From the NCBI GenBank assembly GCA_964552395.1, contig CAZKGM010000003.1:50030-114029 (forward strand): 64,000 nt of DNA. The letters are read 5' to 3'. Source of the stretch: an uncultured Thermoanaerobaculia bacterium (GTDB taxonomy: Bacteria > Acidobacteriota > Thermoanaerobaculia > Thermoanaerobaculales > Sulfomarinibacteraceae). Position numbers and translations under genes: made by a program. Below the pieces are notes generated by a model, which saw only the letters and a program-made list of their open reading frames with translations, ran no database searches and was not told the origin of the DNA. This document shows positions 2,996-22,396 of this stretch, piece after piece; the first letter of the stretch is position 1, and each line of letters begins with the position of its first letter.

Positions 2996-3412
2996 CTACC
3001 AGTCAGGAAAGGGGCGCTTGAGCCAGGTCCGGACCACGGCGTCGCGCTGGCCGCTCAAGAGATCGTCGGCCGCGGGGGTGCGCTGGACGTCGCCCTCCAC
3101 CTTCTTGAGCAGGAAGGCGAGCACAAGGACGATCAGCGACGGGAAGATCAGGTAACCCACGTCCGGGGGGTGAAGATCGCCGCGGGCGAGGCCGAAGAAG
3201 AACACCAGGATCGGCAGGCCGAGGAGCCCGATCTGTGCCAGCGCCGCATACATCTGATGCGCAGCCAGCCGCTTGAACCGCTCGAGCTCATGTGTCGACG
3301 CGATCACCTTCACCTCGCGCCGAAACCGTCCCAGCTCGAGACCGCCCCACAGCAGATTGACCAGCGCCAGCCCGAGCAGGCCGAGGATCACGTACAGCAG
3401 CTCCTCACGCAT
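2996..3412 (-). CDS. Hypothetical membrane protein (about 3 TM)
   Basis: 138 aa ORF with hydrophobic segments and a GGAGG-like RBS; same strand as its neighbours. Confidence 0.7.
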   Translation of the reverse strand: MREELLYVILGLLGLALVNLLWGGLELGRFRREVKVIASTHELERFKRLAAHQMYAALAQIGLLGLPILVFFFGLARGDLHPPDVGYLIFPSLIVLVLAFLLKKVEGDVQRTPAADDLLSGQRDAVVRTWLKRPFPDW

Positions 3413-3463
3413 GGGCTCCTCCCTGAGACCCTTGTTCCCTTTCCCGAACCATCTGCTCGCAGT

Positions 3464-6400: not shown

Positions 6401-6739
6401 GCGGCCAAGGTCGAAGATCAGGGCAACCGCCACGAACAGGTACCCGAGCCAGGCGGTGAGGATGGCCGGACGCAGCAGCCGCTTGAAGGAGTGTTGCCAG
6501 AAGATCTCGATCAGGGCCGCCGCCGTGAACCCGCCCGCCGCCAGCGCGACCCCGCAGGCGACGTCGATCGCGATCCAGATCCCCCACGGGTGCTGGTTGT
6601 CGAGGTTGGTCACGGCACCGAGACCGTTGAAAATCCGTCCGAGGCCGAACGCCAGGCCAACGCCCATGAAGACCATGAGGAGGATCGTCCCCGAGGTCAG
6701 GAACGGGACGCCGGTGCGGGAACGGGGCTCAAGCCTCAT
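3464..6739 (-). CDS. NrfD/HybB-type membrane anchor fused to a 14-CxxCH multiheme cytochrome c (c3-like 5-heme region plus OTR-like region)
   Basis: N-terminal PWGIWIAIDVACGVALAAGGF, FDLGR and HQSSLG (HybB/HmcC family). 14 CxxCH motifs counted. The C-terminal ~470 aa follows the octaheme tetrathionate reductase pattern (HWSW, GYGW, KHGDL, DVHM, PFKRH, DALGY). Confidence 0.88.
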   Translation of the reverse strand: MRLEPRSRTGVPFLTSGTILLMVFMGVGLAFGLGRIFNGLGAVTNLDNQHPWGIWIAIDVACGVALAAGGFTAAALIEIFWQHSFKRLLRPAILTAWLGYLFVAVALIFDLGRWWNIWRPVFFWQGNSVLFEVGICVVAYLLVLTIEMAPAVLGGVRDYLEEHSRDVTWLERLKEPVRVARAFVRAVLPIFIVAGVVLSCMHQSSLGTLMVIAPTKLDPIWYSSFLPVLFLLSAIMVGFPMLIVESILAHKSLGLEPEMDVLERLATKVPILIGIYALAKAADLLSRLGTISFVSNPGTTIAFAVEVVIGLIVPFVILLWKPVRRSPGWLLTASLMVVFGVVMNRINVFLVGYRPAYETHRYFPSIGEIALTLFVVCTIVFLYRLFVTFFPVLWVERVGAAEPPASLVGPPVPISRRLGFVFRSVGVLFLLGFVALYSFVHGEALHASAQTVQEIHRLKMTQAEAAALPGPAYPQRPLAYKNFYLLESPILNEKTDDYEPVGFAHRIHDALTGGDCGVCHHRYAMSADDRIGEDIKALHAAIDVRLGGPCASCHENMASNPPQSCSRCHGLPNEADAPSRIGLKGAYHRQCIGCHEKQTRMANAPADCKACHHPWTPDHSTLVALGERPAPQQVTQTCLTCHADVGEDIMGTAHWSWKGRSPTLVGSEHRVDVSLTSVVGNYFLGIGTEPGRCAACHIGYGWADAGFDLNDADNIDCLVCHDTTGLYRKDPGTAGMPDPTVDLAVVARAVGRPSRQTCGGCHFSSGGFPNAKHGDLEPALADPPAELDVHMGALAMRCQDCHTTVAHRISGRSLLVPAVEGTVECERCHGASPHGMTGVLSRHLDDHVKSVACETCHIPSLARTAPTLLAQDFSTAGQDRSVERGPGGMQTYDPRFGTLVWGMDVTPVYLWYDGSHTLSLAGDRIDPTKAVVLSAPVGERRNPRARIFPFKRHTAVQPFDEENRTLVVAELWDRSSSGLDWQAAIRTGMERMGLPYSGRHAFVQTVSYSSVHHEVVPDHRALSCGDCHSVEAVQCRRCHRAARGTTLPDEALARFPEVRHRMDFDALGYEDDPATVGGRFYVTLGRGVPPQ

Positions 6740-7736
6740 CGGCCTCTCCCTCTCCGGCGCGACCGTCGCTGCGGTCGCCGCCCGCCTCTCGTTCCCCCTC
6801 GGCCTTTCTCTCCTCGCCGATGGCCCGGCGCCAGTTGAACCACATCAGGCCGGCCAACCCCGCGTAGACCGCAACCGGAATAGCCCCGTACTTGAAGATG
6901 CCGTGCTGGATAGCCTCCGTGCGGCTGGGCGGCGGGGCGGTGGGAAGCGACAGCAGGCTGACCTCCTGCGGCGGCCGGCCGGTGAGGTACAACCACGACG
7001 TGCCCCCGACCTCCTCCTCGCCGTAGATGTGCGCCAGGTAGCGGTCCGGGCGCTTCGCGATCCGCTCCTTGGCCAGGAGCAGCAGATCCGCCCGCTTGCC
7101 GAACACCAGCGCCTCCGTGGGGCAGGCCGCCGCGCAGGCGGGGTTCGCGCCGGTTCCGGCCGCAACATCCGTGCACATCTCGCACTTGCGGACCCGCGGC
7201 TTCACCGGATCCCGGTACTCGTACGCGAGAATCTCGAACGGGCACGCCACCATGCAGTAGCGGCAGCCGATGCAGATCGTCGGGTTGTACACGACCGCGC
7301 CGTCCGCGGCCTTGACCATCGCGCCGACGATGCAGGCGGAGACGCACGACGGCCATAGGCAGTGCATGCACTGGAGCTTGGCGTAGGTCTGGCTCTGGTC
7401 ACTCTGGTCACGGGAGGGGGCGCCAGGAAACTGGTTCACGACCGTGAAGGCGTCCGCTGCGGGGCGCCTGAAGGTCCGGAACACGCCGCGGTCGGTGAAC
7501 GGCCGCTCCGGCCGCCGCAGTTTGTTGCGCCGGTTGCAGGCCTCCTCGCACTTGCGGCAGCCAATGCAGAGCGTGGTGTCCACCAACACGCCGACGACGT
7601 CCGGAGAGCTCTTTCGTCGGCTCGCCTTCCCGGTCTGGGCAACTGCAGGGAGAGCCGCAGCGGTCGCCGGGACCGCCCACCCTATCTCCAGCAACGCCCG
7701 TCTGCTCAGCTTCACGACGACCTCCCCGCCGGTCAT
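6729..7736 (-). CDS. HybA/HmcB-like 4x[4Fe-4S] protein with Tat signal
   Basis: SRRALL twin-arginine motif; CIGCRKCEEAC, CMHCLWPSCVSAC, CIGCRYCMVACP and KCEMC; C-terminal TM helix. Confidence 0.9.
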   Translation of the reverse strand: MTGGEVVVKLSRRALLEIGWAVPATAAALPAVAQTGKASRRKSSPDVVGVLVDTTLCIGCRKCEEACNRRNKLRRPERPFTDRGVFRTFRRPAADAFTVVNQFPGAPSRDQSDQSQTYAKLQCMHCLWPSCVSACIVGAMVKAADGAVVYNPTICIGCRYCMVACPFEILAYEYRDPVKPRVRKCEMCTDVAAGTGANPACAAACPTEALVFGKRADLLLLAKERIAKRPDRYLAHIYGEEEVGGTSWLYLTGRPPQEVSLLSLPTAPPPSRTEAIQHGIFKYGAIPVAVYAGLAGLMWFNWRRAIGEERKAEGEREAGGDRSDGRAGEGEADEA

Positions 7737-8030: not shown

Positions 8031-9029
8031 TCACTCGAGGTTCGGGAAACGCGCGATGAGGTCCGAGACAGCTGCCATCGAACGCTCTTTGGTGAGATCT
8101 GCATCCACCTGGTAGGGAACAATCAGGACCACTTCGGAGGTGGCGGCGTCGATGACATAGAAGAGGAGCATCGCCCCTGACGAGGGCGCGAATACCGCCG
8201 GGTTGGAGATGGATGCGTACGAGGGATTCACGCCCTCGACAACGGCGCCCGCCAACATCGCCAGAACGTTGCCGACCTTCCGCCCCTTGGTCTCCGTTAC
8301 CGCTCGGCACCAGACGTACAGGAGGTACCGGCCGTCCCCGTCCTCGGGTCTCACCGCTTGCCGGACCTCGGCAAAGGCGTCAACCTCGTCGAGGAGCGGT
8401 GGGAGCGAACGGTATGCGAGCAGTCCCGGGCGGAGCTTGCGAAGGACGTCGTGCAGCGGCGCAGCGACCTGACCCCAAGCATCGAGCAGTTGCGGCGAGG
8501 CCGACCACGCGGCCTGTAGCCGTCCACCGGCGCCGGCAAGCCGCTCTGCAAGCTCCGTCCGGAGCAGCCCAGTCAGGCGTTCCGCCTCCAGTGGTGCGGG
8601 CTCGAGGTGACCCACGGCGCCCACACCGGTCTTCATCTGAAGCTCCACGTCCACCGGCATCAGGAGGTAGCGGCCCCTTCTTGCCGCCTCCTGATCGGGA
8701 GGTTCTCTGGGAACTCCAGGGATCGGCTCCAGCTCGAGATTGACCACCTCCGGCGACTGTTCGTCGAGCTTCGTCGTGGCGGGCTCGTAGCCACGCTTCT
8801 GCACCGTGACGTAGTGCGGCGTCTCCCCGAAGAACACAACCTTCGCGGTGCCCGGCGTCTCGCCGTCCGACTCGAGCAGCACCGAATCGTCGAGGCTCGG
8901 CTGCGAGTGCTCGACAATCAGCGCCCCCGCAGGCTCGGACACAACCGTGAACTGGCGACTGGTCCCACAACCCACCAGCGCCACGATCCCAGCCAAAGCC
9001 AACCAACAAACTCGTCTTTGTCGCGTCAC
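8031..9029 (-). CDS. Lipoprotein with PEGA-like N-terminal domain
   Basis: Lipobox LVGC; VSEPAGA...GETP...VQKRGY is a PEGA-like pattern; GGAGG RBS before the GTG. Confidence 0.7.
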   Translation of the reverse strand: MTRQRRVCWLALAGIVALVGCGTSRQFTVVSEPAGALIVEHSQPSLDDSVLLESDGETPGTAKVVFFGETPHYVTVQKRGYEPATTKLDEQSPEVVNLELEPIPGVPREPPDQEAARRGRYLLMPVDVELQMKTGVGAVGHLEPAPLEAERLTGLLRTELAERLAGAGGRLQAAWSASPQLLDAWGQVAAPLHDVLRKLRPGLLAYRSLPPLLDEVDAFAEVRQAVRPEDGDGRYLLYVWCRAVTETKGRKVGNVLAMLAGAVVEGVNPSYASISNPAVFAPSSGAMLLFYVIDAATSEVVLIVPYQVDADLTKERSMAAVSDLIARFPNLE

Positions 9030-9092: not shown

Positions 9093-12000
9093 TCAGTTGC
9101 CGCCGATCCTCAGAATCTCGCCGAAGTCTCCGACGGCCCAGCACAGGTTGGAGCGCACGCAGTGCAACCCGAGAAGGCTCAGTCCCGTGGGGCTCGCCAC
9201 CGACGACCAGCTGGCGCCGCCATCCCCGGAGTGCACGATCGTGCCGCGATCTCCAACCGCCCAGCCGTTCGCCGCGGTAGGAAACGCGACATCGTGGAGA
9301 TCGCCGCTGACTCCCACGCCCCTGGCCGTCCAGGTCGTCCCGCCGTCCAGGGTGTGGAAGAACCCGCCTTCGCCGGCAATCCAGCCCTCCGAAGAGCTCG
9401 TGAAGACGACGTGCATCAGGTGCCAGGGGCAGCTGGTGTACCCACAGTCGAGCTCCTGTTGTGCCCAGCTCTTGCCGCCGTCTGCAGTGTGGATGATTGT
9501 GCCGAGCCCTCCGACCGCCCAGCCGTTCTGACTGTCCGCAAAGTGAAGCCCACCCTGAACGATGGCGAAGCCAATGGCCAGGCCGCCCTCGATTCCGGTA
9601 GGCACCCAGGCCCAGTGCGCACCCCCGTCCTCGGTCTTTGCGAGGAAGAGAGATTGTCCTCCGGAGGTGTCATCGTAATGACCCTTATCCAACGCCCAGC
9701 CGTGCTGGCCGTCGAGGAACTGGACGTCGAACAGCTCCGGTGCCAGGCCGTCCGCCAGCTCCTGACCTTGCTCCTCCCAGTGGAGGCCGCCGTCGGAGGT
9801 GTGGAGGATCGCCCCGTGAGATTTCCAGCCGGCCTCGTAGAACGTCTCCGAGCTTCCGGTCGCCCATCCGTGGAGAGCATCCACGAAGCTCACGGCGTCG
9901 AGCCGGAAGTAGCTGAACAGGTTGTCCATCGGCGGCGCCTTCTCGTACTGTTCCGCCCAGCTCGCACCGCCGTCCGAGGTGTGAAGGATGACCTGACCCC
10001 AGAGCTCCGGGGCGAAAGTCCTCCGTCCCACCGCCCAGCCGTTGTATTGATCGATGAAGAAGACGTCCTCGAGTTTGTAGTGAGCGCTGATGTACGCCTG
10101 CTTGAAGAGGTTGTCGCCGTGCGGCCAGCCATACTCCCCCCACGCGTCCTCGGATCGCACAACATAGTCATGATCTCCCACCGCGATGGCGCGGTCGCCG
10201 GTGAGGGCGAGGCCGAACAGGCCCTCGCTGTCGTGGCGCTCTTGAATGACCTTCTCCCAGGTTGTGCCACCGTCTACTGTACGGAACACCGGCGGGCCCC
10301 ATGCCGCGATGTAGTTGGCGCCCATGATGTAGGCTCGGTTGGCATCGATCGCCTCGACATCCCACAGCAGGTCGAAGAAGTGGCCAGGATCCTGCCGCTC
10401 CCAGGTCGATCCTCCGTCCGTGGTGTGGAAAGTCGCGCCGCCGATTTCTCCCGAGCTGGTCACGAATCCCACCGCCCAACCGTGTTCGACGTCGACGAAG
10501 TCAACATCCGTCAACGAGACCGGGAGATCCGGGGCATACTGCTCGGCCCACGTCGCGCCGCCGTCGGTCGTGTGGTAGACAACCATCCGGTGCTCCGGCC
10601 AGGGGTCGTCACCGACATACCGGGCCCCGACCGCCCAACCGGTCTTGGTGTCGATGAACTGCACTCCGTGCAGGATGCTGGCGCCGGCGGGCAGGCTCTG
10701 CTCGTTCCATGTCTGCCCCCCGTCGTCGGTGTGCCAGACGCTCGCCTCCCAGTTGTCCTCATCACCTACGAAGTCCCAGTGCGTCGGTCGAACGGCTGTG
10801 ATCCACCCATGCTCGTCATCGGGAAACGAGACGGCCCGCAGGCCATCTGTCGTGGCGATGGTCTGACGGGTCCAGGAGCCACCACCGTTCGAGGTGTGCA
10901 GGATGAGCCCACCCCCACCCACTGCCCAGCCGTTGTTCTGTCCGACGAAGACCACTGCGTTGAGGCCGGCAGTCTGGCCGACGGCGTGTTCACTCCAGCT
11001 CGCGCCGCCGTCATCGGTCTTGAGAAGCGTCGTCACGTACTGCTTCTCCGCCGGATCCCAGTGTGCCTCACCCACCGCCCAACCCGTAGTCGAGCTCAGC
11101 ATGTCCACGTCGCGCAGGTAGTACGAAACCTCCTCGAACTGCCTGGTCACCGTGAGCGCTCCAGCCGGCTGCAGCTCCGGCATGAAGACCGGATCTCCGG
11201 TCCGATTGTCGATGACCGAGGCGTAGGCGAAGAAGGCCCCCGCCGATGTGTTGGTGGTGAGCACGGCGTAGCCGTCCTCAACGGCGGCCGAGGTCACCGT
11301 ACGGAAGACCCGATCGAGCTGCCGGAACTCCAGCGGCCGCAAGGCCGTACGGCTGGAGGGAACTCTCCCCAGCAGGGCCCCTGAGCCGTCGTACAGATCG
11401 ACGGCAATCTGCAGTGGCGCCGCGGTGGCGTTGACGATGCCGATGTTGGTCCGGAAGCCGGTGCTCGACGCGGTGCTTTCCCGCAGCTGGATCAGGCGCA
11501 CCGCCACGCCGGCCGGGATCGCCGCCGCTGTGGCTCGGCCCGGCACGAGCTGACCATAGGTGCCGTCCGCGGTTTCGTTGTAGGTCCGACTGCTCAGCTG
11601 AAGAGGACAGCCCGACGGGGTCACCCTGAGAGCGGCTGCGCCGGAGAACGCGAACATCGACGCCAACACGTCTTTGTAGCGGACGGCCAGTCCGGGGTCG
11701 AGCTGGAAGCTCCTGGAATCCGGCAACGAGTTGTCCTGGTCCCGAGCGAGCAGCTCGATCGTGTAGGCGCACTGGGCGGGCCCAGGGTTGAGGAGCTCGA
11801 GATCCGTCCGCCAGCTCGTGCCGCCGGCACCAGTGACGTGTGCCGCGGCCGGAATCACCAGGCTGCCACCCGCAGGCGTTCGCAGGGCGGGCAGGAAAAC
11901 CGGATCGCCGGTGCGATTATCGATCACCGAGGCGTAGGCAAGAAAACGCTCCGACCCTCCCGTGAACTGTGCCTCCACCACGGCGTAGCCATCGGAAACC

Positions 12001-12761
12001 TCCTGAGAAGTCACCCTCCGGAAAATCTTGTCGAGCTGCTCGAACTCGTAGGGATCGAGCCAGGTGGTCACGGTCCCCAGCTCGGTGCCGCCCGAGTCAA
12101 ACAGCCGCACCTTCATGAGGAGGGTCCCTTCGCTCAGATTCAGCAGGCCGATATTGGTCCGGAAGCCTTGTGTTTCCGAGGTGCTTTGCGAGAGCTGGAT
12201 CAGATATGCCGGATCTTGACGCGTGAACGCCTCACTCTCGGCAAAGGCCGGCACGAGCTGGCCGTAGGTCCCCTGCGGCTGGTCGTTGAAGGTCCTGCTG
12301 GTCACCAGCGGATCGCCGCCACTCGTGGTCAGCCGGAGGGCTGCCGCCCCGGAGAAGGAGAACAGGCTCTGAAGGACGTCATCATAGCGCGCACTCCTCC
12401 CCGCACCCACGCTGATCGTCGTACTCCTTGGGCTCGAGTTGTCATGATCGCGTTCAAGCAGTGCAACCGTGATGGAGACATCACTGACGCCCGGGTTGTG
12501 GAGTTCAAGGTCGGTGCGCCAGTTCGTGCCGACCGCTCCCGAAAGGTGGGCGCTGGCCGGTATATAGAGCGTGCTCCCTGCTGCCAGGCGCACCGCCGCG
12601 GCGGAAGCCGCTGTTTGCCCTTGGCTCCCATCCGGACGAATACGCTGAGTCGTTGGATCGAACCCGTAGGCCTTCGTTGCAGCGAATGCCTGGACCACCG
12701 CCAGCATCAGCAGCAGCGCCACCTCGACCACACTCAAGCACGATCGGCAAAGATGAGCCAT
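9093..12761 (-). CDS. Large secreted protein: two tandem YASVIDNRTGDP domains plus YCF48/BNR-like beta-propeller repeats
   Basis: Signal peptide (VQAFA). Two ~240 aa repeats run from WRTDLEL to YASVIDNRTGDPVF. Many [T/S]xDGGxxW / GWAVG blades follow. Confidence 0.85.
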   Translation of the reverse strand: MAHLCRSCLSVVEVALLLMLAVVQAFAATKAYGFDPTTQRIRPDGSQGQTAASAAAVRLAAGSTLYIPASAHLSGAVGTNWRTDLELHNPGVSDVSITVALLERDHDNSSPRSTTISVGAGRSARYDDVLQSLFSFSGAAALRLTTSGGDPLVTSRTFNDQPQGTYGQLVPAFAESEAFTRQDPAYLIQLSQSTSETQGFRTNIGLLNLSEGTLLMKVRLFDSGGTELGTVTTWLDPYEFEQLDKIFRRVTSQEVSDGYAVVEAQFTGGSERFLAYASVIDNRTGDPVFLPALRTPAGGSLVIPAAAHVTGAGGTSWRTDLELLNPGPAQCAYTIELLARDQDNSLPDSRSFQLDPGLAVRYKDVLASMFAFSGAAALRVTPSGCPLQLSSRTYNETADGTYGQLVPGRATAAAIPAGVAVRLIQLRESTASSTGFRTNIGIVNATAAPLQIAVDLYDGSGALLGRVPSSRTALRPLEFRQLDRVFRTVTSAAVEDGYAVLTTNTSAGAFFAYASVIDNRTGDPVFMPELQPAGALTVTRQFEEVSYYLRDVDMLSSTTGWAVGEAHWDPAEKQYVTTLLKTDDGGASWSEHAVGQTAGLNAVVFVGQNNGWAVGGGGLILHTSNGGGSWTRQTIATTDGLRAVSFPDDEHGWITAVRPTHWDFVGDEDNWEASVWHTDDGGQTWNEQSLPAGASILHGVQFIDTKTGWAVGARYVGDDPWPEHRMVVYHTTDGGATWAEQYAPDLPVSLTDVDFVDVEHGWAVGFVTSSGEIGGATFHTTDGGSTWERQDPGHFFDLLWDVEAIDANRAYIMGANYIAAWGPPVFRTVDGGTTWEKVIQERHDSEGLFGLALTGDRAIAVGDHDYVVRSEDAWGEYGWPHGDNLFKQAYISAHYKLEDVFFIDQYNGWAVGRRTFAPELWGQVILHTSDGGASWAEQYEKAPPMDNLFSYFRLDAVSFVDALHGWATGSSETFYEAGWKSHGAILHTSDGGLHWEEQGQELADGLAPELFDVQFLDGQHGWALDKGHYDDTSGGQSLFLAKTEDGGAHWAWVPTGIEGGLAIGFAIVQGGLHFADSQNGWAVGGLGTIIHTADGGKSWAQQELDCGYTSCPWHLMHVVFTSSSEGWIAGEGGFFHTLDGGTTWTARGVGVSGDLHDVAFPTAANGWAVGDRGTIVHSGDGGASWSSVASPTGLSLLGLHCVRSNLCWAVGDFGEILRIGGN

Positions 12762-12784
12762 CTCGCACCTCCGGCCACCACCTC

Positions 12785-12800
12785 AGCAAGAGGAGTGCCA
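12785..12800 (-). promoter_or_regulatory. sigma54 (-24/-12) promoter of the large secreted protein
   Basis: Reverse complement TGGCAC-TCCTC-TTGCT matches the consensus, followed by a GGAGG RBS and ATG at 12761. Confidence 0.85.
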
Positions 12801-12888
12801 CATGGCCGGCGGATCACAACTTCCAGTCTTTCAGGATGATCCAACACCGGGTCCCGGAGGAAGCGTCCTTCTGCATAGCCACAGCCAG

Positions 12889-12918
12889 GTCCCGAGATAC
12901 CCTCACGGGTATCGGGAC
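12889..12918. promoter_or_regulatory. Inverted repeat: candidate enhancer site, or terminator of the kinase gene
   Basis: GTCCCGAGATACCC-TCAC-GGGTATCGGGAC, about 90-120 bp upstream of the sigma54 motif and 24 bp past the kinase stop. Confidence 0.45.
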
Positions 12919-12941
12919 GGTCGGCCGCCCCCTATGTCGGA

Positions 12942-15383
12942 TCAGTCTCCGGAACCGTTCAGGCGCGCCATGAGCTCTGCAATACAACCGCAGACCACGC
13001 CTTCCGTGGGACGACCCTCCGGGTTCTTGGCCATCATGCTGAGGATCAGCTGATCGAGCTCGGGACCGATCTCCGGCCGGTAGCGGATCGGCGCCACCGG
13101 CTCGACGTCGAGGATCTGCTTGATCACCTCTACCGGCGTATTGCCGGGGAACGCTTGCCGCCTGGTGAGGAGCTCGTAGCCGATGACGCCGAGGGCGTAC
13201 AGGTCGCTGGCGGGAGAAGACCTCTGCTCGGTGATCAGCTCCGGTGCGAGGTAGCCGATCGTGCCCACCAGCATCCCGGTCTGCGTGAGCCGCGTCAGCG
13301 ACTGCGTGCGGGCGAGCCCGAAGTCGAGGAGCTTGACAAAGCGCACGTCACCATCCCGCTGGACCAGAAACACGTTTTCCGGCTTGAGGTCGCGGTGGAG
13401 GATCCCCTTGTCGTGCAGGCGCGAGACGGTATCGATGAGCTGGCCCAAGATGTACAGCGCATCGGCCACCGGGACCAACCGCGGCTCGGAAATGAGCTCG
13501 GCAAGCGACCGCCCGTCGAGGAGCTCCATCGCCATGAACAGGCGGCCGTCGTGCTCTCCTCTTTCGTGAACCCGGACGACATGTGGGTCATCAAGCTGGT
13601 CGATGACGGCAGCCTCGTGGAGGAACCGTCGGCGCACGGTTTCGTCTGCAGCCAGCTCATCCCGAATCACCTTGAGCGCGAACCGGCGCGAGCCATCTGC
13701 GACATCCTGGGCAAGGTAGACGACCCCCATGCCACCGCTGGCGATGCGGTCTAGGATCCGGTAGTGCCCGATGTGGCTGCTCCGCCTCCAGAAACCGAGA
13801 AGTGAACGGTACCTGTAGCCCAACCAGCCCAAGACCAGGAGCGCCACGCCGAGCCCGGCGAACATGAGGTTGGCGCGCAGCCTGGCGCGGCTCGACAGCA
13901 GGCGCTCGAGCTCGTTCTCTTTGGCCAAGAGATCGATCTCCCGCTGCTTCTTCTCGGCCTGGAACCGAGCCTCGAGCTCTTGCACGCGACGGTTGGAGCG
14001 CTCGTTGAGCTTGGTCTCGCGGGCCGTTGCGGCCTTCTTGTACGCCCTGAGCGCTCCACGGTAGTCACCGAGGCCCACTCGGATTCGAGACAGAATGCCG
14101 CCAGCCTCGCTGAGTCGGTCCGGGTCGGTGATCTCCTCCGCGAGGCGAACGGCGCGCTCGAGGTAGGGCAGCGCCTCTCGACTCCTGCCCATCCCGTCGA
14201 GCGTCTCGCCAATGTTCTGCGAGGCGCGGGCGATTCCGTCCTTAACGGCCAAGCGCTCCCACACGGTCAGCGCCTGCCGGTGAAAGGAGAGCGCGGTGGC
14301 GAGCTGACCCCGGTTCCGGTTGACGACTCCGAGGTTGTCCAGAGCAGCCGCAATGTCCCACTGGCTCGCTTGCTCCCTGGCCAAGGCGAGCGCCGCGCGG
14401 TACTCCGCCTCTGCCTCGGAATACCGTTTCTGGAGCTGGTAGATATTGCCGATGTTGCCGTGGGCACCGCCCACCCCCGAGCCGTTGCCGATTCTCTGGT
14501 AGAGCTCCATCGCGCGCCGAAAGTACTTCAGTGCATGGTCGAGCTGCCCCATATCCTGGAAGATGTTGCCGATGTTGGCCGAAGAGGCAGCAACACCCAG
14601 GTCATTGCCGGCCGCCTCGTCCATCTTGAGTGAGGCCAGCAGCTTCTCGAGCGCCCCATCGTAGTCGCCCATCTGGTACAGAGCGATCCCGATGTTGTTC
14701 AAGGCCTTGGAAACCCCGCGCTGATTCCCGAGCTTGGTCTCAATCTCGAGCTCTTCGGAGTGGATCTCGTACGCCTTGGCAAAGTCGCCGCGGTCGTAAT
14801 GAACGTTGGCGAGATTGCCGAGGGTTCGGGCGACGCCCTTCGAGTTTCCCAGCTCCCGGTCGATGGCGAGGCTGCGCTCGTAGAGCTTGAGGGCTTGGTC
14901 GTAGTCGCCCATCATGCGGTGGCAGACGCCCATCACGTTGAGTGAGCTCGCCATCCCCTTGCGGTTGCCGGTCCCCTCGTACAGGGCCAGCGCCCGGGTC
15001 GCGTGCTCAAGCGAAACTTGATGGTTGCCGCCGACGCTCTCTGAGACCGCCAGGTTGCGTTCCGCCGCAGCCTCACCCAGACGATCTTCGAGCTTGCGTG
15101 CGAGCGCGAGCGCCTCGAGGCCGTAGCGTCGACCGGTCTCTACCGATGCGAAGCTGGTCCGGTACGCAAGCTCGTTGAGGATCCCAAGCCGCTCGGCGCC
15201 CGCAGCCTTCGCCAGGCGACTTTCGAGCTCGGCCACCGACGGTTCATCGGCGGCGACCCCCGGTGCCGCTATGCAGAAGGTCATTACCAGCGCGATCAAG
15301 GCCGCTCGTGAGAGTGCCCGTGTCGATACCACCCGCAAGCGAGATCGACACGCTGATGACGACGTTCTCGCAGTATCCCGCAT
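12942..15383 (-). CDS. Membrane Ser/Thr protein kinase with extracytoplasmic TPR domain
   Basis: Signal-like N-terminus, multiple TPR helices, one TM, then GGMGVVY, ALK, HRDLKPEN, DFG and GTIGYLAPE. Start is uncertain. Confidence 0.9.
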   Translation of the reverse strand: MRDTARTSSSACRSRLRVVSTRALSRAALIALVMTFCIAAPGVAADEPSVAELESRLAKAAGAERLGILNELAYRTSFASVETGRRYGLEALALARKLEDRLGEAAAERNLAVSESVGGNHQVSLEHATRALALYEGTGNRKGMASSLNVMGVCHRMMGDYDQALKLYERSLAIDRELGNSKGVARTLGNLANVHYDRGDFAKAYEIHSEELEIETKLGNQRGVSKALNNIGIALYQMGDYDGALEKLLASLKMDEAAGNDLGVAASSANIGNIFQDMGQLDHALKYFRRAMELYQRIGNGSGVGGAHGNIGNIYQLQKRYSEAEAEYRAALALAREQASQWDIAAALDNLGVVNRNRGQLATALSFHRQALTVWERLAVKDGIARASQNIGETLDGMGRSREALPYLERAVRLAEEITDPDRLSEAGGILSRIRVGLGDYRGALRAYKKAATARETKLNERSNRRVQELEARFQAEKKQREIDLLAKENELERLLSSRARLRANLMFAGLGVALLVLGWLGYRYRSLLGFWRRSSHIGHYRILDRIASGGMGVVYLAQDVADGSRRFALKVIRDELAADETVRRRFLHEAAVIDQLDDPHVVRVHERGEHDGRLFMAMELLDGRSLAELISEPRLVPVADALYILGQLIDTVSRLHDKGILHRDLKPENVFLVQRDGDVRFVKLLDFGLARTQSLTRLTQTGMLVGTIGYLAPELITEQRSSPASDLYALGVIGYELLTRRQAFPGNTPVEVIKQILDVEPVAPIRYRPEIGPELDQLILSMMAKNPEGRPTEGVVCGCIAELMARLNGSGD

Positions 15384-15509
15384 GTTTCGTTTCCGGACCA
15401 GTGAAGTGTACCAGGCCCTCGGTCAGCGATGTGACTTGCACGCGAGATCCTCGGGAGGCGGATGATCTGCGTCACAGCGCCCCACTTCGGATCGTCCTGT
15501 ACGGACCCG

Positions 15510-16931
15510 CTACCACCGCCCCTTTGCCGGGCGCACGCCGTACTTGTGGAGGGCGGCAACGAAGCGCGGGTACTCGCCCGGCTCGATGTTGAGGGCGGCC
15601 GCGAGCTGCTTCAGGCTGCTCCCGTTGCGGGCGTGATGGCGTTCCAGAAACAGGCGCAGCTGGCGCCGGTTGAGCTCACGATCCAGGAAGGCCCGCCACG
15701 CCGTGTCCCAGAAGCTGGCGCCCGACCCGATAGCGGCCTCCAGCTCGGACAGTACGGCCTCCGCATCCACCACTTCCACGGCTCCACGACCGATCACGGT
15801 TTCCAGCTCCCGCCCAATCTCCGAACCCTCGAGCTGGATTCCGGCGCGCTTGAGCACCTGGATCAGCTCGCGGACATTGCCCGGCCAGTCGTGGGCGAGG
15901 GCGACCTCCCAGAACCCGCTGCCCGGACGCTTCCCCCGCAAGAGGTCAAGGTGCTGCTCGACTAGGGCCTTAATGTCCTCGGGTCGTCCGCGCAGGGGAG
16001 GAATCGTGATTGGCAGCACGCCCAGCCGATAGTACAGGTCCGCCCGCAGACCGGCAGCCTCGGGTCCGGCATCGAGCGCGCGGTTGCTGGCTGCGAGGAT
16101 CCGCACATCTGCCGTCTGCTCGCGCGCCTCACCCACCCTCCGGTAGCGACGGCTGTCCACGAGCTCCAGCAGCTTGGCCTGGAACTGGCGCGGGACCTCG
16201 CTGACCTCGTCCAGCAGCAGGCTCCCGCCCTCCGCCTCCGCCACCAGACCATCCCGACCACGATCGGCACCTGTGAACGCCCCCCGGACATGTCCGAACA
16301 TCTCCCTCTCGAATAGGGTTTCCGGGATCGATGGCACGTGCACGGACACGAGACGGCCACGGCGGCCAGAGTGGCGGTGGATCAGCCCTGCAAGGTAGGT
16401 CTTGCCGACGCCGGTTTCGCCGAGCAGCAGCACCGGATCCTCCTCCAGGGCATAGCGCGCGACCAGCTCGCGCACGTGGACCATGGCCTCACTGGTGCCG
16501 GCAATGCCGGCCGGACCGTCACCGGCGCCCGCAATGGTGGCGAGAGTGTCCCCCAGCAGCTCACCGAGGGCACGGATGACTTCTCTATCCGAACGGTCGA
16601 AGGCGTCTTTGGAGCCGCTATCGACGTAAAGAAACAGGTCGCCGCCAATCGGCAGGACAAGCAGGCTCCGAATGAAGAGGGCCTGGGCCGACGCCGGCAG
16701 GGCACGCTCCTCTGCGAGATCGACTACATCCTCTCGCTCGAGGGCGGCGCCGTCCGTCAGGGTGCGACGGATGGCACTGTGCGGAAACCCGGAGCCGGTG
16801 TCGATTGTCTCGCCGCTCACCCTCCTCCCGCAGTGCCAGAGGATCCGGCCGTCCCTGCCGTACACCATCGCGAGCGACACATCCCGCCCCTCGAGCAGAT
16901 GCCACAAGCGGTTCTTGATGGCCTGAATCAT
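15510..16931 (-). CDS. sigma54-dependent transcriptional activator (bEBP) with GAF-like N-terminus
   Basis: Walker A GETGVGKT, GAFTGA, LLLDEV, ADLYYRL, WPGNVREL; C-terminal HTH-like region; no receiver domain. Confidence 0.9.
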   Translation of the reverse strand: MIQAIKNRLWHLLEGRDVSLAMVYGRDGRILWHCGRRVSGETIDTGSGFPHSAIRRTLTDGAALEREDVVDLAEERALPASAQALFIRSLLVLPIGGDLFLYVDSGSKDAFDRSDREVIRALGELLGDTLATIAGAGDGPAGIAGTSEAMVHVRELVARYALEEDPVLLLGETGVGKTYLAGLIHRHSGRRGRLVSVHVPSIPETLFEREMFGHVRGAFTGADRGRDGLVAEAEGGSLLLDEVSEVPRQFQAKLLELVDSRRYRRVGEAREQTADVRILAASNRALDAGPEAAGLRADLYYRLGVLPITIPPLRGRPEDIKALVEQHLDLLRGKRPGSGFWEVALAHDWPGNVRELIQVLKRAGIQLEGSEIGRELETVIGRGAVEVVDAEAVLSELEAAIGSGASFWDTAWRAFLDRELNRRQLRLFLERHHARNGSSLKQLAAALNIEPGEYPRFVAALHKYGVRPAKGRW

Positions 16932-17422: not shown

Positions 17423-19246
17423 TCACCCCAACCAGCGGCGGCACCAGCGGGTGAGCACGGCCACCGCGAAGAGGCGCTCGGCATAGTCGGCGCGGCCGTC
17501 CTGGTGCGCCCGCCACGTGGCCTCGAGGATTCCCTGGTCGAGGCCGAGCTCGCCGGCAGTGGCGCCGAGCACGGCATCGCCGAGCGGCTCGCGCAGCGGG
17601 CCGCGCAGCCAGCCTGCGAGAGGGACCTCGAAGCCGCGCTTGCCCCGCTCCGGCTGCCGGCCCGGCAGACGCCGTGCGAGAGCACGCCGCAGCAGCCGCT
17701 TGTCGCGGGCGAGCCGGGGCGGAAGGCCGAGCACGAGCTTGACGACCCGGTGGTCGAGCAGCGGCACCCGGACCTCGAGCGAGTGGTCCATGCTGGCCCG
17801 GTCGACCTTGGCGAGGACCCGCTCGGGGAGGAACGTGAGAAGGTCGAGCAGGCGCCAGCGGCGCCACAGGGGTTCACCCGCGACACGATCAAGAGTCTCC
17901 TGCGGCCACGGCAGGGGAAGCTCCGTCTCGCCGAGGAGCCTCGCCGCCTCGCGCCCGGGCCACACCCCCTGCAGGCACTGGTAGGCGTGCCACGGCGTCG
18001 GCGCGGCAAGCGCGGCAGAGAGCTTGGCGCCCCACCTTTTGGCCGGCAGCGGCGCCAGCCGCAGCCCGGCGCGCGCCCCGGGAACGCGCCACAGCCGCTC
18101 CAGCCGCGGCATGAACCGGAGCCGCGGGTAACCGGACAGCAGCTCGTCTCCCCCGTCCCCCGACAGGGCCACGGTCCAGCGCCGCCGCGCCGCCCGCGAC
18201 ACCACCCAGGTCGGCGCCAGGGACGGGTCCGCAAGCGGATCCCCGGCGACCTCCTCCCAGCGGCCGAGAACTTGGAGCATCTCGGTCGGCGAGCACCTCT
18301 CCACCAGGTGGCGTAGGCCCAGTGACCCGGCGGTTCGCGCGGCTGCCGGCGCCTCGTCGAAGGAGCCATCGAAGCCCACGGTCAGAGCCTCGAGCCCGGC
18401 CCCGGCGGCCGCCGCTGCGGCCGCCACGGCGGCGGAGTCGACGCCGCCCGACAGGAAGCAGCCGAGGGGTACGTCGCTGACGAGCCGTTCGCGAACCGCC
18501 CTCATCAGGTGCGCGTCCAGCTCCTCCACCGCGCCACTCGCCGACAGCTTCGAACCACCCTCGGCGGACGCCGAGATCGGGTCGTACCAGGGGCGGACCC
18601 GGATGCCGGACGAATCGGCTTCCAGCAGGTGGCCTGGCGGCAGGCGGCGCACGCCGCGGACCAGCGTTGCCTCACCGGCGGAGAAGCCCAACTGTAGCCA
18701 GCTCGCAACCACCGCGCGGTCGAGGTCGCGCGCTACCCCCGGGTGGCAGAGCAGTGCCGGCAGCTCCGAGGCAAAGGCGAGCCCCCCGGCCACCGGCGCC
18801 CAAAACAGCGGCTTGATGCCGAGGCGATCGCGGGCGAGAAGGAGACGCCGGCGCTCCGGATCCCACAGTGCGAGGGCGAACATTCCTTCCAGCTCAGTCA
18901 GCGCGTCGGCACCTCCCGGACCGAGGACGGCCAGCACCACCTCGGTATCACCGCTGCTCGCGAAGATAGCGCCGTCAGCCTCCAGCCGCTGCCGCAGCTG
19001 ACGGAAGTTGTAGACCTCGCCGTTGTAGACCAGGACGCGGCCGGCGGCGTCCGACATCGGCTGATCGGCGCGAGCGGAGGGATCGAGCACACACAGGCGG
19101 CGGTGCCCGAGGACGGCGGCGCCGCACGGATCCCTCCACAGTCCCTCGCCGTCGGGCCCCCGGTGGACGAGCCGGGCGGTCATGCGTCGCACCGGCCCAT
19201 CATCCACCGGGTCCCGCCAGCTCACCCAACCCGAGATCCCACACAT
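17423..19246 (-). CDS. asnB: Asparagine synthase (glutamine-hydrolysing)-family amidotransferase
   Basis: N-terminal MCGISG, HRGPD, GHRRL, YNGEVYN, LSGGVDS, SGDGGDE and DRASM...RVPLLD. Start reset to the Met before the catalytic Cys. Confidence 0.93.
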   Translation of the reverse strand: MCGISGWVSWRDPVDDGPVRRMTARLVHRGPDGEGLWRDPCGAAVLGHRRLCVLDPSARADQPMSDAAGRVLVYNGEVYNFRQLRQRLEADGAIFASSGDTEVVLAVLGPGGADALTELEGMFALALWDPERRRLLLARDRLGIKPLFWAPVAGGLAFASELPALLCHPGVARDLDRAVVASWLQLGFSAGEATLVRGVRRLPPGHLLEADSSGIRVRPWYDPISASAEGGSKLSASGAVEELDAHLMRAVRERLVSDVPLGCFLSGGVDSAAVAAAAAAAGAGLEALTVGFDGSFDEAPAAARTAGSLGLRHLVERCSPTEMLQVLGRWEEVAGDPLADPSLAPTWVVSRAARRRWTVALSGDGGDELLSGYPRLRFMPRLERLWRVPGARAGLRLAPLPAKRWGAKLSAALAAPTPWHAYQCLQGVWPGREAARLLGETELPLPWPQETLDRVAGEPLWRRWRLLDLLTFLPERVLAKVDRASMDHSLEVRVPLLDHRVVKLVLGLPPRLARDKRLLRRALARRLPGRQPERGKRGFEVPLAGWLRGPLREPLGDAVLGATAGELGLDQGILEATWRAHQDGRADYAERLFAVAVLTRWCRRWLG

Positions 19247-19416
19247 GACCTTATGGTACGCGTACCGGGCTCCGGTGCCGGCATCCGCACCGGCACGATC
19301 ATTGAAGAGGGAGGAAACGTGGGGCCTTGGCGTTGCTCCCAGTCTCGAGAGGCCCGTGGTGATCCGAAACACGCTCCCGGCTTGCTCAATCGGCAGCGGC
19401 CTCGTACGATGACGCC

Positions 19417-21177
19417 ATGGCACGCGGGAAGGCATCCGGTCGCGGCGCGCCGCCGCCTGCCGCGGCGGATGACCGGAGCCCCGCCATCACCCTCCTCGGG
19501 ATCGTGCTCCTCCTGACCGAGGTCATCGTCCTGCCTTCCGCGGCAAGCCCGTTCCGGGAGCCCAAGATGGCGGTGGCGGTTGCCGGACTGGCGCTCGTGC
19601 TCGGCGTTCTCGCCGCCGTCGGGCTGTGGCGGCACCAGCTCGAAATCCACACCTCGCCGCTGGTCGCGGCCCTCGCCGCGTATCCGGCCCTCCTGGCTGT
19701 TTCTGCGCTGTGGGCGGCGAGCCCCCGTCGCGCCTTGCTGGCGGCGGGGCTGGCAGGCGCCTGGGTCGCCGTGATTGTTCTACTCGCCGGTTTGGGGAGG
19801 TCGGCGCTCTCGCGCCTGGTCGTGTGGGCGGCCGTGGGGGCGGCAGCCTCGGTCGTAGTAGAACTCCTGCAGGTCGCGAACCGGTCGCCGCTGGTGGCGG
19901 TGGCCACCTCCGATGACCGGCTCGCGCGGACCGGCCTCGCGGGCAACCCGGCCGACCTGGCCGCCGCCTCGTTGCTGCTGATCCCGCTGCTCCTCACGCC
20001 CGGCGAACGCAGGGTGCCGTCGCGCTTCGGGTTGGCGCTGATCGCAGTCCTCGGCATCGGCGTAGCACTGTCGCAAACCCTCACGGGGTATGTTGCGATC
20101 GCAGCCCTCATGGTGGCCTGGCTTGTCCATCGCCGCTCGCGGAAGCTGTGGCTCGGGGCGGTCACGCTGCTGGTTGTCCTGGCTGCGGCCGCGGCCCTGT
20201 CCGGCGTCGGCGAGCGTCTGCGAACGTTGGACACCAACCTTCGGGAAGGGAACTGGTACGCGGTCTTCTCGGCCCGCGCCGACGGCTGGACGGCGGCCGC
20301 GCAGATGATCTCAGACCACCCGCTGACCGGTGTCGGCGGTGCCAACTTCACCCAGGCCTTCTATCCCGCACGGCTGGCGTGGCTCGACACGCACGAGACC
20401 CGGGGCGCCCGCGGCGAGCTCGCCACGCACTTCCCCTGGACCCACTGCGATCCGTTGCAGCTGGTCGCAGAGCTCGGCGTTCCCGGCACGCTGTGGCTGC
20501 TGCTTTTTGCAGTCTCCTTCGTTCGCAGCGCCCGCGATTCCCGCGAGCTGGCAACTCTGGCCGCGGCTGCAGCCGCGCCCTTCCTGCTGTTCCACTACCC
20601 GGCGCACCTGGCGATCGGCCTCATCCCGCTGGCGTTGATACTCGCGCGCCTGGTGGCCGACGGCTCATCGCCCCGTCGTGTCGTCCGTGGTCCGGCCGCG
20701 GCGCGGGGCCTCGCGCTCCTGGTCCTCGCGCTCACCGCTGCCGTCGTCGTCTGGCAGTACCAGGGCTTGGCAACAACCCTGTGGTACGGACGAGCAGAGC
20801 AGGCCATCGAGACCTCGATCAGGCTGCCCGAGCCGCTTCGCGGCCGCACGCTGGCCGGGGCCGAGAAGATCCTCGTTGCCCGCGAAGCCGCCCATCCCGA
20901 GGAGGCGCCGTGGCTGTTGCGGCTCATCGGCCGCACACGTCTCGCTCTCGGACGCGACCCGGCCGCCGAAGACGCGTTCCGTCGCGCTTTCGCCCTCTGG
21001 CCGCACGCCCAGGCCGAGCTTGGGCTCGGCCTGGCCCTCGCCGCCGAAGGCCGCGTCACCGAGGCCCTGCCCCACCTCGAGCGGGTCGCACGCGTCAACC
21101 CGAAGCTCGTCGACCTGATCCCCGATCCCGAGCTGCGGCGCGCCGTCAGCGAGTCGGTCCGGCAAGCGCAGCAGTGA
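19417..21177 (+). CDS. O-antigen ligase/polymerase-like membrane protein with C-terminal TPR
   Basis: About 12 TM segments, GLAGNP, R...W...HPLTGVG, HCDPLQ (Wzy_C-like), TPR-like tail. Confidence 0.8.
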   Translation: MARGKASGRGAPPPAAADDRSPAITLLGIVLLLTEVIVLPSAASPFREPKMAVAVAGLALVLGVLAAVGLWRHQLEIHTSPLVAALAAYPALLAVSALWAASPRRALLAAGLAGAWVAVIVLLAGLGRSALSRLVVWAAVGAAASVVVELLQVANRSPLVAVATSDDRLARTGLAGNPADLAAASLLLIPLLLTPGERRVPSRFGLALIAVLGIGVALSQTLTGYVAIAALMVAWLVHRRSRKLWLGAVTLLVVLAAAAALSGVGERLRTLDTNLREGNWYAVFSARADGWTAAAQMISDHPLTGVGGANFTQAFYPARLAWLDTHETRGARGELATHFPWTHCDPLQLVAELGVPGTLWLLLFAVSFVRSARDSRELATLAAAAAAPFLLFHYPAHLAIGLIPLALILARLVADGSSPRRVVRGPAAARGLALLVLALTAAVVVWQYQGLATTLWYGRAEQAIETSIRLPEPLRGRTLAGAEKILVAREAAHPEEAPWLLRLIGRTRLALGRDPAAEDAFRRAFALWPHAQAELGLGLALAAEGRVTEALPHLERVARVNPKLVDLIPDPELRRAVSESVRQAQQ

Positions 21178-22327
21178 CGGCCGCGCTCACGGCCTCCGCC
21201 ACGCGACGGGGATGGTAGAGCCGGCGCCACACCTCACGCCCAGCGTCGCCGACGGTGCGGGCACGCTCGCCGTCCAGCAGCAGCCCGGCCACCGCATCTG
21301 CAAACTCCTCGCAGCCTTCCGCCGTCACCAGGTCGTGCCCGGCCACCGCCTGCAGCCCAGCGGCGCTCCAGGAACGGGCAACCACCGGTACCCCCGCAGC
21401 CCACGCCTCCAGCACCTTCATTGGCACTCCAGAGCCGCTGGCCATGGGTGCAATGGCGACCCGTGCGCGAGCGAAGAACGGCGCCAGGTCCGGAACGTCG
21501 GCGTGGACCTCAACCCCGGCCAGATCGGCAAGCTTGCGAACGGCGCGCGGCGGGCGCGCCCCCGCGACAACCCATCGTGCCTTGGACACCCGTGCCCGGA
21601 TCAGCGGCCACACGCTCTTTGCGAACCAGATCGCACCGTTCACCGTCGGGCGGTAGCCGAGGTTGCCCGACAGCAGCACCACGGGCGGCTCCGAGACGGC
21701 CCCGTGCCGACGCTCCGGCGCGCTCACCGGCACCACCCTGCCACAGCCGTCCCCCACGCTGATGGCCTCGAGGTCCCGCCGCGAAACTGCGGTCGTCACC
21801 GTCGCCGCACGGGCCAGATCGACCTCGAAGCGGCGGCAGCGAGCGGCCTCCAGCCTGGCGAACGGCCGCAGAGGCGCCGCCAAGTCGCCGGCGCCACGTC
21901 CAAAGTGGAGCCCCATTGCATCGATGGCGTCGAACACGACCGGCGTGCCCGGCGCCACTGCAGCGATCTCTGAGAGCGCCCACCAGCAGCGCACCATCTG
22001 CACCACCACCACATCTGGGGATGCGGAAAGAAGCGCTCTCCGCAATGCTCGGCGAGCGGCCGCGTGGTGGTACAGGCCCTCTTGCACCGGCCGTCCGGCC
22101 ACTACCGCCCTAGCGGCCCCGAAAGCCATCCGCGCCCGCGACAAGGGGTACTCCTGCACCTCGACCCCAGTCGCGTCGAGGGAGGTGGCATCGACGTCGG
22201 AGGGTGGCTCCGGCGTCACGAGGGTGAGCCGATGATCCGCCAGGGCACGCAGCCACTCCATTGTTCGTACCTGGTTGCCGCGCCATGGGGGCAACGGATA
22301 TCGGCTGGTCACGAGGAGGACGTGCAC
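21146..22327 (-). CDS. Glycosyltransferase family 4 (GT-B)
   Basis: LLVTSRYP N-terminus, GNLGYRPT, SGVPMKVLEAWAAGVPVV. Confidence 0.88.
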   Translation of the reverse strand: MHVLLVTSRYPLPPWRGNQVRTMEWLRALADHRLTLVTPEPPSDVDATSLDATGVEVQEYPLSRARMAFGAARAVVAGRPVQEGLYHHAAARRALRRALLSASPDVVVVQMVRCWWALSEIAAVAPGTPVVFDAIDAMGLHFGRGAGDLAAPLRPFARLEAARCRRFEVDLARAATVTTAVSRRDLEAISVGDGCGRVVPVSAPERRHGAVSEPPVVLLSGNLGYRPTVNGAIWFAKSVWPLIRARVSKARWVVAGARPPRAVRKLADLAGVEVHADVPDLAPFFARARVAIAPMASGSGVPMKVLEAWAAGVPVVARSWSAAGLQAVAGHDLVTAEGCEEFADAVAGLLLDGERARTVGDAGREVWRRLYHPRRVAEAVSAAVTAALAGPTR

Positions 22328-22396
22328 GGGCCCAAGGTAGCTCACCGGGCCAAACCCCGCCACTCACCCTGCTGCACTCCATAGCGTGCGAGCGCT

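Follow-up and report, generated by a model that had tools for sequence, protein, structure and literature searches.

A putative sigma54 activator cassette with a receptor Ser/Thr kinase, a predicted enhancer and exchangeable cargo in uncultured Acidobacteriota

The DNA analysed here, hereafter the window, is a stretch of 64,000 nucleotides from contig CAZKGM010000003.1 of an uncultured Thermoanaerobaculia bacterium. Four consecutive genes of the window, all on the minus strand and each with the high third-position GC content of real genes here, encode a sigma54 activator (a sigma54 enhancer-binding protein), a receptor Ser/Thr kinase, a large secreted protein referred to below as the cargo, and a lipoprotein (Table 1). 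An initial annotation of the same sequence had placed the first three genes side by side on one strand, had described the cargo as a large secreted protein preceded by a consensus sigma54 promoter, and had located an inverted repeat upstream of this promoter, between positions 12880 and 12925. These observations were all confirmed: the three open reading frames (ORFs) lie next to each other on the minus strand, the cargo has 1222 residues and a signal-like N-terminus, the promoter is exact and conserved in the corresponding spacers of two related loci, and the repeat is real, with its core inside the announced interval. The same annotation proposed that the whole constitutes a self-contained signalling cassette, which is the question addressed here.

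Judging by its sequence, the first gene product is a bona fide sigma54 activator. The Sigma54_activat family (PF00158) matches its residues 143-308 (E 8.5e-50, 169 bits for a cutoff of 20.2), the AAA lid is also matched in Pfam, the Walker A motif reads GETGVGKT and the GAFTGA motif is intact. Residues G217, T220 and A222 are invariant in an alignment of 27 sequences of the activator family. A profile of the protein retrieved the structures of NtrC1, FleQ and PspF at E ~1e-75, and the central domain of an AlphaFold2 model built with the family alignment (predicted local distance difference test, pLDDT, of 86) superposes on the same three proteins. The search of this whole model with Foldseek returned AAA+ domains only, with TM-scores up to 0.89 to NtrC1. 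The activator had been annotated as devoid of receiver and FHA domains, and no match to Response_reg or FHA was found in Pfam at E <= 0.01; the models of NtrC, ZraR and AtoC match the protein only from about residue 130 onwards. It is nevertheless not a bare protein without input domain, as that description implied, because its N-terminal part is a family-specific domain that resembles GAF domains. A weak GAF_2 match was detected at residues 27-130 (E 0.0022, 18.6 bits, below the cutoff of 28.6). The whole-model Foldseek search being uninformative for this part, the N-domain was modelled separately (pLDDT 87.7), with an alpha-beta-beta-alpha-beta-beta-beta-alpha layout. The top Protein Data Bank (PDB) matches of this model are the GAF-A domains of DosS and DosT (E 2e-4, TM-score ~0.5), and Roadblock/LC7 folds match nearly as well. 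For these two reasons the modelled domain is called GAF-like only, short of a demonstrable GAF domain.

The N-domain was compared by phmmer to 1.84 billion cluster representatives (50% identity), which yielded 67 matches. The full-length matches are proteins of ~450-500 residues, except for the 2486-residue protein P0275. The latter matches the N-domain in nine separate stretches and is the only clear match outside the activator architecture. Conservation in the activator family extends from end to end (47-83% identity), and the named matches belong to Acidobacteriota, Aminicenantes or Thermoanaerobaculaceae; as far as these sequences indicate, the family is narrow and comes mostly from metagenome-assembled genomes (MAGs) of Acidobacteriota. 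Its C-terminal domain was confidently modelled by AlphaFold2 as helical over residues 390-464 and carries the conserved motif YPRFV[SA]ALHKY. No HTH_8 match was found in the activator in Pfam, and sequence searches of the PDB returned no solved relative of either the N-domain or the C-domain. We infer from the pattern (...SLKxLAxALNI....YPRFVSALHKYGV) that the C-domain is a divergent Fis-type helix-turn-helix (HTH).

The second protein combines a tetratricopeptide repeat (TPR) array with a Hanks-type kinase domain. The TPR_12 family covers its N-terminal half (E 5e-56) and Pkinase (PF00069) matches residues 541-793 with 159 bits for a cutoff of 31.7; the catalytic motifs ALK (with the beta3 lysine), HRDLKPEN, DFGLA and LAPE are all present. 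Hydropathy analysis of the 813 residues revealed exactly two hydrophobic segments. The first, at residues 22-47, is signal-peptide-like, with an arginine-rich N-terminus before it and APGVA/ADE at its end, and the second, at residues 502-524, is followed by RYRSLLGFWRR. The two segments bracket the TPR array, which puts the array outside the cytoplasm and the kinase domain inside. The protein thus appears to be an active Hanks kinase whose TPR sensor is exported. The Stk1/PknB model NF033483 matched the kinase domain only (248 bits for a cutoff of 450) and no PASTA domain was found in the protein in Pfam. The initial annotation had pointed out that histidine kinases are the more familiar carriers of such a TPR sensor. 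This view is supported by a sub-cutoff match of residues 238-494 to the FimS model NF053520 (E 7.8e-36, 123 for a cutoff of 600) and by sequence searches in which relatives of the TPR region were fused to histidine-kinase or cyclase domains.

The kinase and cargo genes are separated by a spacer of 180 nt that contains the presumed regulatory elements. The promoter TGGCACTCCTCTTGC matches TGGCAC-N5-TTGC exactly and ends 24 nt before the start codon of the cargo gene, with transcription predicted to start at ~12773-12775. Exact matches to this consensus occur twice in the window for 0.12 expected, a count that none of 100 shuffled sequences reached; when one mismatch is allowed, seven sigma54-like motifs are found for 3.7 expected, which is not significant. 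A perfect palindrome, ATACCCGTGAGGGTAT, is located upstream of the promoter and is separated from the -24 element by 96 nt; its pattern ATACCC-N4-GGGTAT has a single match in the window (0.02 expected). A second, degenerate half-site on the promoter side of the palindrome reads GGCTAT in the window and GGGTAT in the related loci L004 and L005, whose activators are 83% and 74% identical to that of the window. In the alignment of the three spacers the conserved islands are the palindrome, the half-site, the -24 and -12 elements and the Shine-Dalgarno sequence. Other loci have tandem sites spaced by 21 bp, and the half-site is the counterpart of the one nearer the promoter.

The second exact promoter consensus of the window, TGGCACATGGGTTGC, lies at 42226-42240 on the minus strand, ~50 nt upstream of a gene for a YeeE/Cons_hypoth698-like membrane protein that is followed by dsrA and dsrB (genes at 38285-42173). 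Neither the pattern ATACCC-N4-GGGTAT around this site nor a second activator gene within the window was found, and a different, unlinked activator may therefore control these dissimilatory sulfite reductase genes. Three of the one-mismatch motifs, at 45242-45256, 47519-47533 and 49222-49236 (all on the minus strand), are located upstream of or at the start of genes for a DsrM-like protein, a rhodanese and a PilS-like histidine kinase; they are candidates only, the overall count of seven such motifs not being above chance.

The recurrence of the palindrome was investigated in related loci, 35 of which were collected through family-specific C-terminal motifs taken from the C-domain alignment and three through exact-protein look-ups. 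A pair was defined as ATACCC-N4-GGGTAT with at most two mismatches, upstream of TGGCAC-N5-TTGC with at most one mismatch and with GG and GC fixed. The palindrome was found 59-109 nt upstream of a sigma54 motif in 22 of the 38 sequences, making 30 pairs, whereas no pair was found in the reversed order or in any of 20 Markov-simulated sets. Only 48 palindrome sites were counted in 573 kb; 25 of them belong to a pair, and certain promoters are preceded by two. The gaps between palindrome and promoter cluster at ~73 and ~96 nt, which are two helical turns apart, and tandem palindromes 21 bp apart are present in five loci (L013, L014, L017, L028 and L030). The inverted repeat is very probably an enhancer, a prediction that is made from this comparison of sequences.

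Another explanation of the locus is coincidence: the genes would be neighbours by accident, the match to the promoter consensus would have arisen at random, and the inverted repeat would simply form a hairpin that terminates transcription of the kinase gene. The palindrome indeed lies only 30 nt past the kinase stop codon and forms a stable RNA hairpin (-36.7 kcal/mol, z = -2.45), and the lack of enrichment of one-mismatch promoter motifs goes in the same direction. On the other hand, the hairpin lacks a U-tract behind it and was not called by the terminator scan. The exact promoter and the palindrome are both far more frequent in the window than expected, and it is the same 16-bp sequence, beyond mere structure, that recurs phased upstream of sigma54 promoters in related loci and never in the controls. 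These loci are not near-identical copies of one genome, their activators being 41-83% identical. Many of the palindrome sites are located between divergent genes, where no gene ends upstream of them, which excludes termination as a general explanation. Termination as the main role of the palindrome was consequently rejected on these comparative grounds in spite of the stable hairpin, and coincidence appears extremely improbable.

In a reverse approach, metagenome contigs were scanned with the composite pattern and 44 loci were retrieved. In three of them both the family activator and the kinase are present in the short flanks, and in four others a fragment of either. The gaps fall in the two preferred phases in 27 of 45 cases (32% expected). 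Among the genes downstream are some for signal-peptide proteins like those of the related loci, for example PQQ-type propellers beginning with DWLHFG. The scan is only partly specific, and many of the remaining matches are probably chance occurrences or unlinked members of regulons.

The association of the activator with a kinase was assessed by tblastn with the window proteins. A Ser/Thr kinase gene stands beside the activator gene in 33 of 37 distinct related loci, one locus being too short to judge. In most loci the partner has the same order of TPR array, transmembrane segment and kinase, with a kinase domain 43-83% identical to that of the window. Variants are nonetheless observed: the abutting kinase of L003 carries a CHASE2 domain in place of the TPR array, and the neighbouring kinases of L021 and L032 are more distant (32-37% identical) and have no adjoining TPR match. 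In L022, two kinases flank the activator, a kinase domain abutting upstream and a TPR-kinase downstream. The position of the kinase gene also varies, from upstream abutting to downstream co-directional or downstream convergent, or with cargo genes in between. A pairing that is retained despite such rearrangement is, at the level of gene order, the signature of a functional pair. The two partners moreover diverge together, since the identities of activators and of kinase domains to the window proteins are correlated with r = 0.92 over 29 loci. All 30 partner kinases that were aligned have the beta3 lysine and HRD, and 28 have DFG. The synteny expected across Acidobacteriota is therefore found for the kinase-activator core and not for the trio of the initial annotation, as the cargo gene is not conserved. 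In the same way, the proposed self-contained cassette is strongly supported for its core of kinase, activator and sigma54 promoter, with full orthologues of the 1222-residue cargo limited to close relatives, namely L004, L005 and L030 among the related loci.

The cargo of the window begins with a signal-like segment (residues 1-32 by hydropathy), followed by two tandem repeats of ~236 residues that are 53% identical to each other. Its C-terminal ~680 residues match the PSII_BNR propeller (132.6 bits over five stretches) as well as solved Ycf48 structures. The 236-residue domains have no match in Pfam or in the PDB. They were detected in 169 other proteins, many of ~271 residues, so that the domain makes up most of their length; some of the 169 also carry PKD domains, and one relative is labelled Candidatus Sulfomarinibacteraceae. 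On the basis of these matches, the tandem domains define an unannotated domain family. The domain recurs in cargo beside the same activator family, in the upstream gene of L004 and in L006, L007, L009 and L012. The lipoprotein gene starts 63 nt past the cargo stop codon and is preceded by GGAGGAGG. Its product gave no family match, and a gene for a 77% identical lipoprotein directly follows the cargo orthologue in L004; in the window it is probably co-transcribed with the cargo gene from the sigma54 promoter.

In other loci, the promoter beside the kinase-activator pair drives different genes. They encode DUF2846 lipoproteins, small proteins resembling outer-membrane beta-barrels, PQQ-type or BNR propellers (some fused to the 236-residue domain), a DUF6709 membrane protein and small cysteine-rich proteins. 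Most of this alternative cargo is predicted to be exported. The comparison suggests that the cargo is swapped among relatives while the core of sensor, activator and enhancer stays. Exported cargo fits the published proposal that sigma54 chiefly governs the cell exterior (PMC3162934).

The following chain of events can be proposed. Sequence and hydropathy describe the kinase as a type-I membrane protein with an exported TPR array, a single span and a cytoplasmic kinase domain. The TPR ectodomain would sense a signal in the periplasm or the envelope, probably a protein or a peptide. The active kinase domain would then switch on the neighbouring activator, most likely through phosphorylation of its GAF-like N-domain or of the linker, relieving their hold on the AAA+ ring. 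Control of the activator by the kinase is suggested by the conserved linkage, the co-divergence and the conserved catalytic residues. Activator dimers would bind the palindrome and the adjacent half-site, a step favoured by a very strong comparative signal, and would remodel the sigma54 holoenzyme at the promoter, as AAA+ proteins with GAFTGA are known to do. The outcome would be transcription of the gene for the secreted protein with its two propellers, probably together with the lipoprotein gene behind it. We give a probability of about 0.6 to this whole chain from kinase to activator, enhancer, promoter and cargo, and likewise to the reading of the locus as a representative of a conserved cassette that occurs chiefly in Acidobacteriota MAGs and in which a Hanks-type receptor kinase occupies the place of a histidine kinase. 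Taken separately, the step that links activator, enhancer and promoter is very likely, and direct phosphorylation of the activator by the kinase has even odds.

Several observations weigh against this interpretation. The activator has no recognised phospho-dependent input module, neither FHA nor receiver, and S81, S89 and S105, although invariant in its family, are phosphoacceptor candidates only. No kinase is within reach of the activator in L017, L036 and L037. The lysine of the catalytic loop (HRDxKxxN) is replaced by threonine or serine in five partner kinases (L024, L026, L028, L030 and L031) and DFG by DFD in two (L029 and L034). No PP2C phosphatase was found in the annotated neighbourhoods of the loci obtained by exact-protein look-up. 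Most loci of the metagenome scan have no family gene in their short flanks, the palindrome may also act at the RNA level, and both the transcription start and the induction of the cargo are predictions.

Some of these points would be accounted for if the kinase controlled the activator without phosphorylating it, either by membrane sequestration and release, like NifL-NifA or PspA-PspF, or through an unlinked intermediate substrate. Linkage and co-divergence are equally well explained by a protein-protein partnership, and the missing phospho-dependent modules and the few partner kinases with non-canonical residues would also be consistent with it. However, the retention of the beta3 lysine and HRD in every aligned partner kinase, and of DFG in nearly all of them, argues that catalysis matters, and no conserved third signalling gene was found in the annotated neighbourhoods of the exact-protein loci. 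Control of this kind is considered unlikely. A further alternative holds that the GAF-like domain, which could bind a small cytoplasmic ligand, is the true sensor, the kinase acting in parallel, for example by phosphorylating envelope or cargo-handling proteins. In activators of the NifA, NorR and FhlA type, GAF domains sense ligands or metals (for NorR, PMC2941729), the best Foldseek matches of the N-domain are ligand-binding GAF domains, and the three family loci that have no kinase nearby would be easily explained. Yet the N-domain is small and atypical, being as close to Roadblock-like folds as to GAF domains and below threshold in Pfam, and it is confined to the kinase-linked activator family. 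The adjacency of kinase and activator also survives both rearrangement and the exchange of the TPR sensor for CHASE2, as is typical of cognate signalling pairs. A parallel role of the kinase hence seems quite improbable, and control of the activator by its neighbouring kinase remains the preferred interpretation.

Activators of sigma54 are textbook outputs of histidine-kinase or small-ligand signalling. The NtrB/NtrC system shares with the cassette a kinase gene adjoining the gene of an AAA+ GAFTGA activator, and dyad enhancers, often in tandem, ~80-110 bp upstream of a -24/-12 promoter. Here, the kinase is of the Hanks type instead of HisKA/HATPase and the activator has a GAF-like input fold in place of a receiver with its phospho-aspartate site. 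Jelsbak, Givskov and Kaiser reportedly described in 2005 FHA-domain enhancer-binding proteins of Myxococcus xanthus and proposed that they are wired to Ser/Thr kinase signalling. Those activators carry the phosphothreonine-binding FHA domain, in contrast to the cassette activator, whose kinase is a conserved neighbour; to our knowledge they are not locked one-to-one to an adjacent cognate kinase. A dedicated Ser/Thr kinase input to sigma54 was suspected from these myxobacterial proteins, and we know of no defined cognate pair. The sensor module of the kinase (signal peptide or transmembrane segment, periplasmic TPR array, coiled coil and transmembrane segment) is of the same kind as that of Porphyromonas FimS, whose output is a histidine kinase; the sub-cutoff match indicates a shared module and not orthology. 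PknB and the other PASTA kinases are also single-pass receptor Ser/Thr kinases with an extracytoplasmic sensor. Their kinase domain is N-terminal and their sensor C-terminal, whereas the window protein has its sensor at the N-terminus, after a signal peptide, and its kinase domain at the C-terminus, as in eukaryotic type-I receptor kinases. As for the cargo, its C-terminal 680 residues share their propeller fold class with Ycf48/HCF136, a photosystem II assembly factor of phototrophs with one seven-bladed propeller of ~330 residues. The cargo, by contrast, has 1222 residues with two propeller units and two extra N-terminal domains, its host is a non-phototroph, and the Ycf48 equivalog NF010237 gave 140 bits for a cutoff of 326, so the two are not orthologous.

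The cassette activator resembles NifA, NorR and FhlA in having an N-terminal GAF-type domain followed by AAA+ and C-terminal HTH domains. In NorR, the GAF domain represses the AAA+ domain until the signal comes (PMC2941729). The N-domain described here is only GAF-like, confined to its family and paired with a receptor kinase, and the cassette has another enhancer motif. Among precedents for placing a dedicated Hanks kinase next to a module with an alternative sigma factor, the one that comes closest in concept would be PknS-EcfK of Xanthomonas citri, in which a transmembrane Ser/Thr kinase has an extracytoplasmic function (ECF) sigma factor as its substrate (PMC13147305). There, and apparently also in the cassette, a dedicated Hanks kinase switch replaces the canonical partner of an alternative-sigma module. 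The target in PknS-EcfK is a sigma factor of the sigma70 family, while the presumed target in the cassette is the ATPase activator of sigma54.

The genomic setting of the cassette is one of sulfite reduction, as the window also carries dsrAB, DsrMK-like genes and an Hmc-like complex. This gene content, together with the Candidatus Sulfomarinibacteraceae relative of the 236-residue domain, is consistent with the sulfur-cycling marine Acidobacteriota described earlier (PMC8528874). In a search of sequencing runs, the DNA runs containing the locus were from salt marsh only, and none of the RNA runs searched contained the window sequence. Directly downstream of the cassette, an Hmc-like respiratory module (3464-7736, minus strand) encodes an NrfD-like membrane subunit fused to a multihaem cytochrome c (1091 residues) beside an HmcB/HybA-like FeS protein. 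An ORF on the opposite strand, 1475-6838 (plus), was discarded as spurious: it has no family matches, its codon-position GC content speaks against it, and the real gene is at 3464-6739. Upstream of the activator, a polysaccharide-type cluster (17423-26524) contains genes for a protein with Wzy_C and TPR domains, a GT1 glycosyltransferase, a DegT aminotransferase, a UDP-glucose dehydrogenase and an AsnB-like amidotransferase that resembles the XrtA/PEP-CTERM amidotransferase (433 bits, under the cutoff of 817). A PEP-CTERM/exosortase regulation was considered in view of the neighbouring AsnB-like and Wzy_C-TPR genes and of a PrsR match of the activator. It was rejected since the PrsR model covers the AAA+ core only (184 bits for a cutoff of 503), a PEP-CTERM tail is missing from the cargo and a receiver domain from the activator.

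Table 1. Coordinates of the genes, protein domains and spacer elements of the cassette in the window.
Feature	Nucleotides	Strand	Residues	Remarks
Sigma54 activator	15510-16931	-		473 residues; sigma54 enhancer-binding protein
Activator N-domain (GAF-like)	16527-16931	-	1-135	
Activator AAA+ Sigma54_activat domain	15807-16505	-	~143-375	contains GAFTGA
Activator C-domain	15522-15764	-	~390-470	helical, putative divergent Fis-like HTH
Receptor Ser/Thr kinase	12942-15383	-		813 residues; TPR ectodomain, Hanks-type
Kinase signal peptide or first transmembrane segment	15243-15320	-	22-47	
Kinase extracytoplasmic TPR array and coiled coil	13884-15242	-	~48-500	
Kinase second transmembrane segment	13812-13880	-	502-524	
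Kinase cytoplasmic Hanks domain	13005-13763	-	541-793	
Palindrome, predicted enhancer (upstream activating sequence) ATACCCGTGAGGGTAT	12897-12912	.		ATACCC-N4-GGGTAT, perfect, 16 bp
Second, degenerate half-site	12875-12880	-		GGCTAT (GGGTAT in L004 and L005), ~22 bp downstream of the palindrome
Sigma54 promoter TGGCACTCCTCTTGC	12786-12800	-		GG at -24, GC at -12
Shine-Dalgarno sequence GGAGG	12768-12772	-		6 nt before the ATG at 12761; kept in L004 and L005
Secreted cargo protein	9093-12761	-		1222 residues
Cargo 236-residue domains	11877-12599 and 11157-11876	-		
Cargo beta-propellers	9096-11141	-		two, Ycf48/BNR-type
Lipoprotein	8031-9029	-		332 residues, lipobox LVGC; probable second gene of the sigma54 operon

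No description of the kinase-linked sigma54 activator family, of the palindrome or of the cassette was found in the literature, the coverage of which was incomplete, and this is weak evidence of novelty. More generally, the cassette may represent a Hanks-type two-component class for sigma54, in which a receptor kinase directly phosphorylates a dedicated GAF-like domain and thereby licenses enhancer binding and activation, the unit travelling with interchangeable cargo; this extension is tentative, at slightly less than even odds. Within such a class, the TPR ectodomain might monitor the cargo or the state of the envelope. If phosphorylation proved true, the repertoire of sigma54 activators would gain a new class of input, and an orthogonal set of kinase, activator and enhancer parts would become available. 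The cassette is a compact and testable case made up of a single kinase, whose receptor topology is unusual among bacterial Hanks kinases, a single activator, a single promoter and a single predicted enhancer of 16 bp, and dozens of natural variants are usable for covariation analysis. It offers a first regulatory handle on the exported proteins of uncultured sulfur-cycling marine Acidobacteriota.

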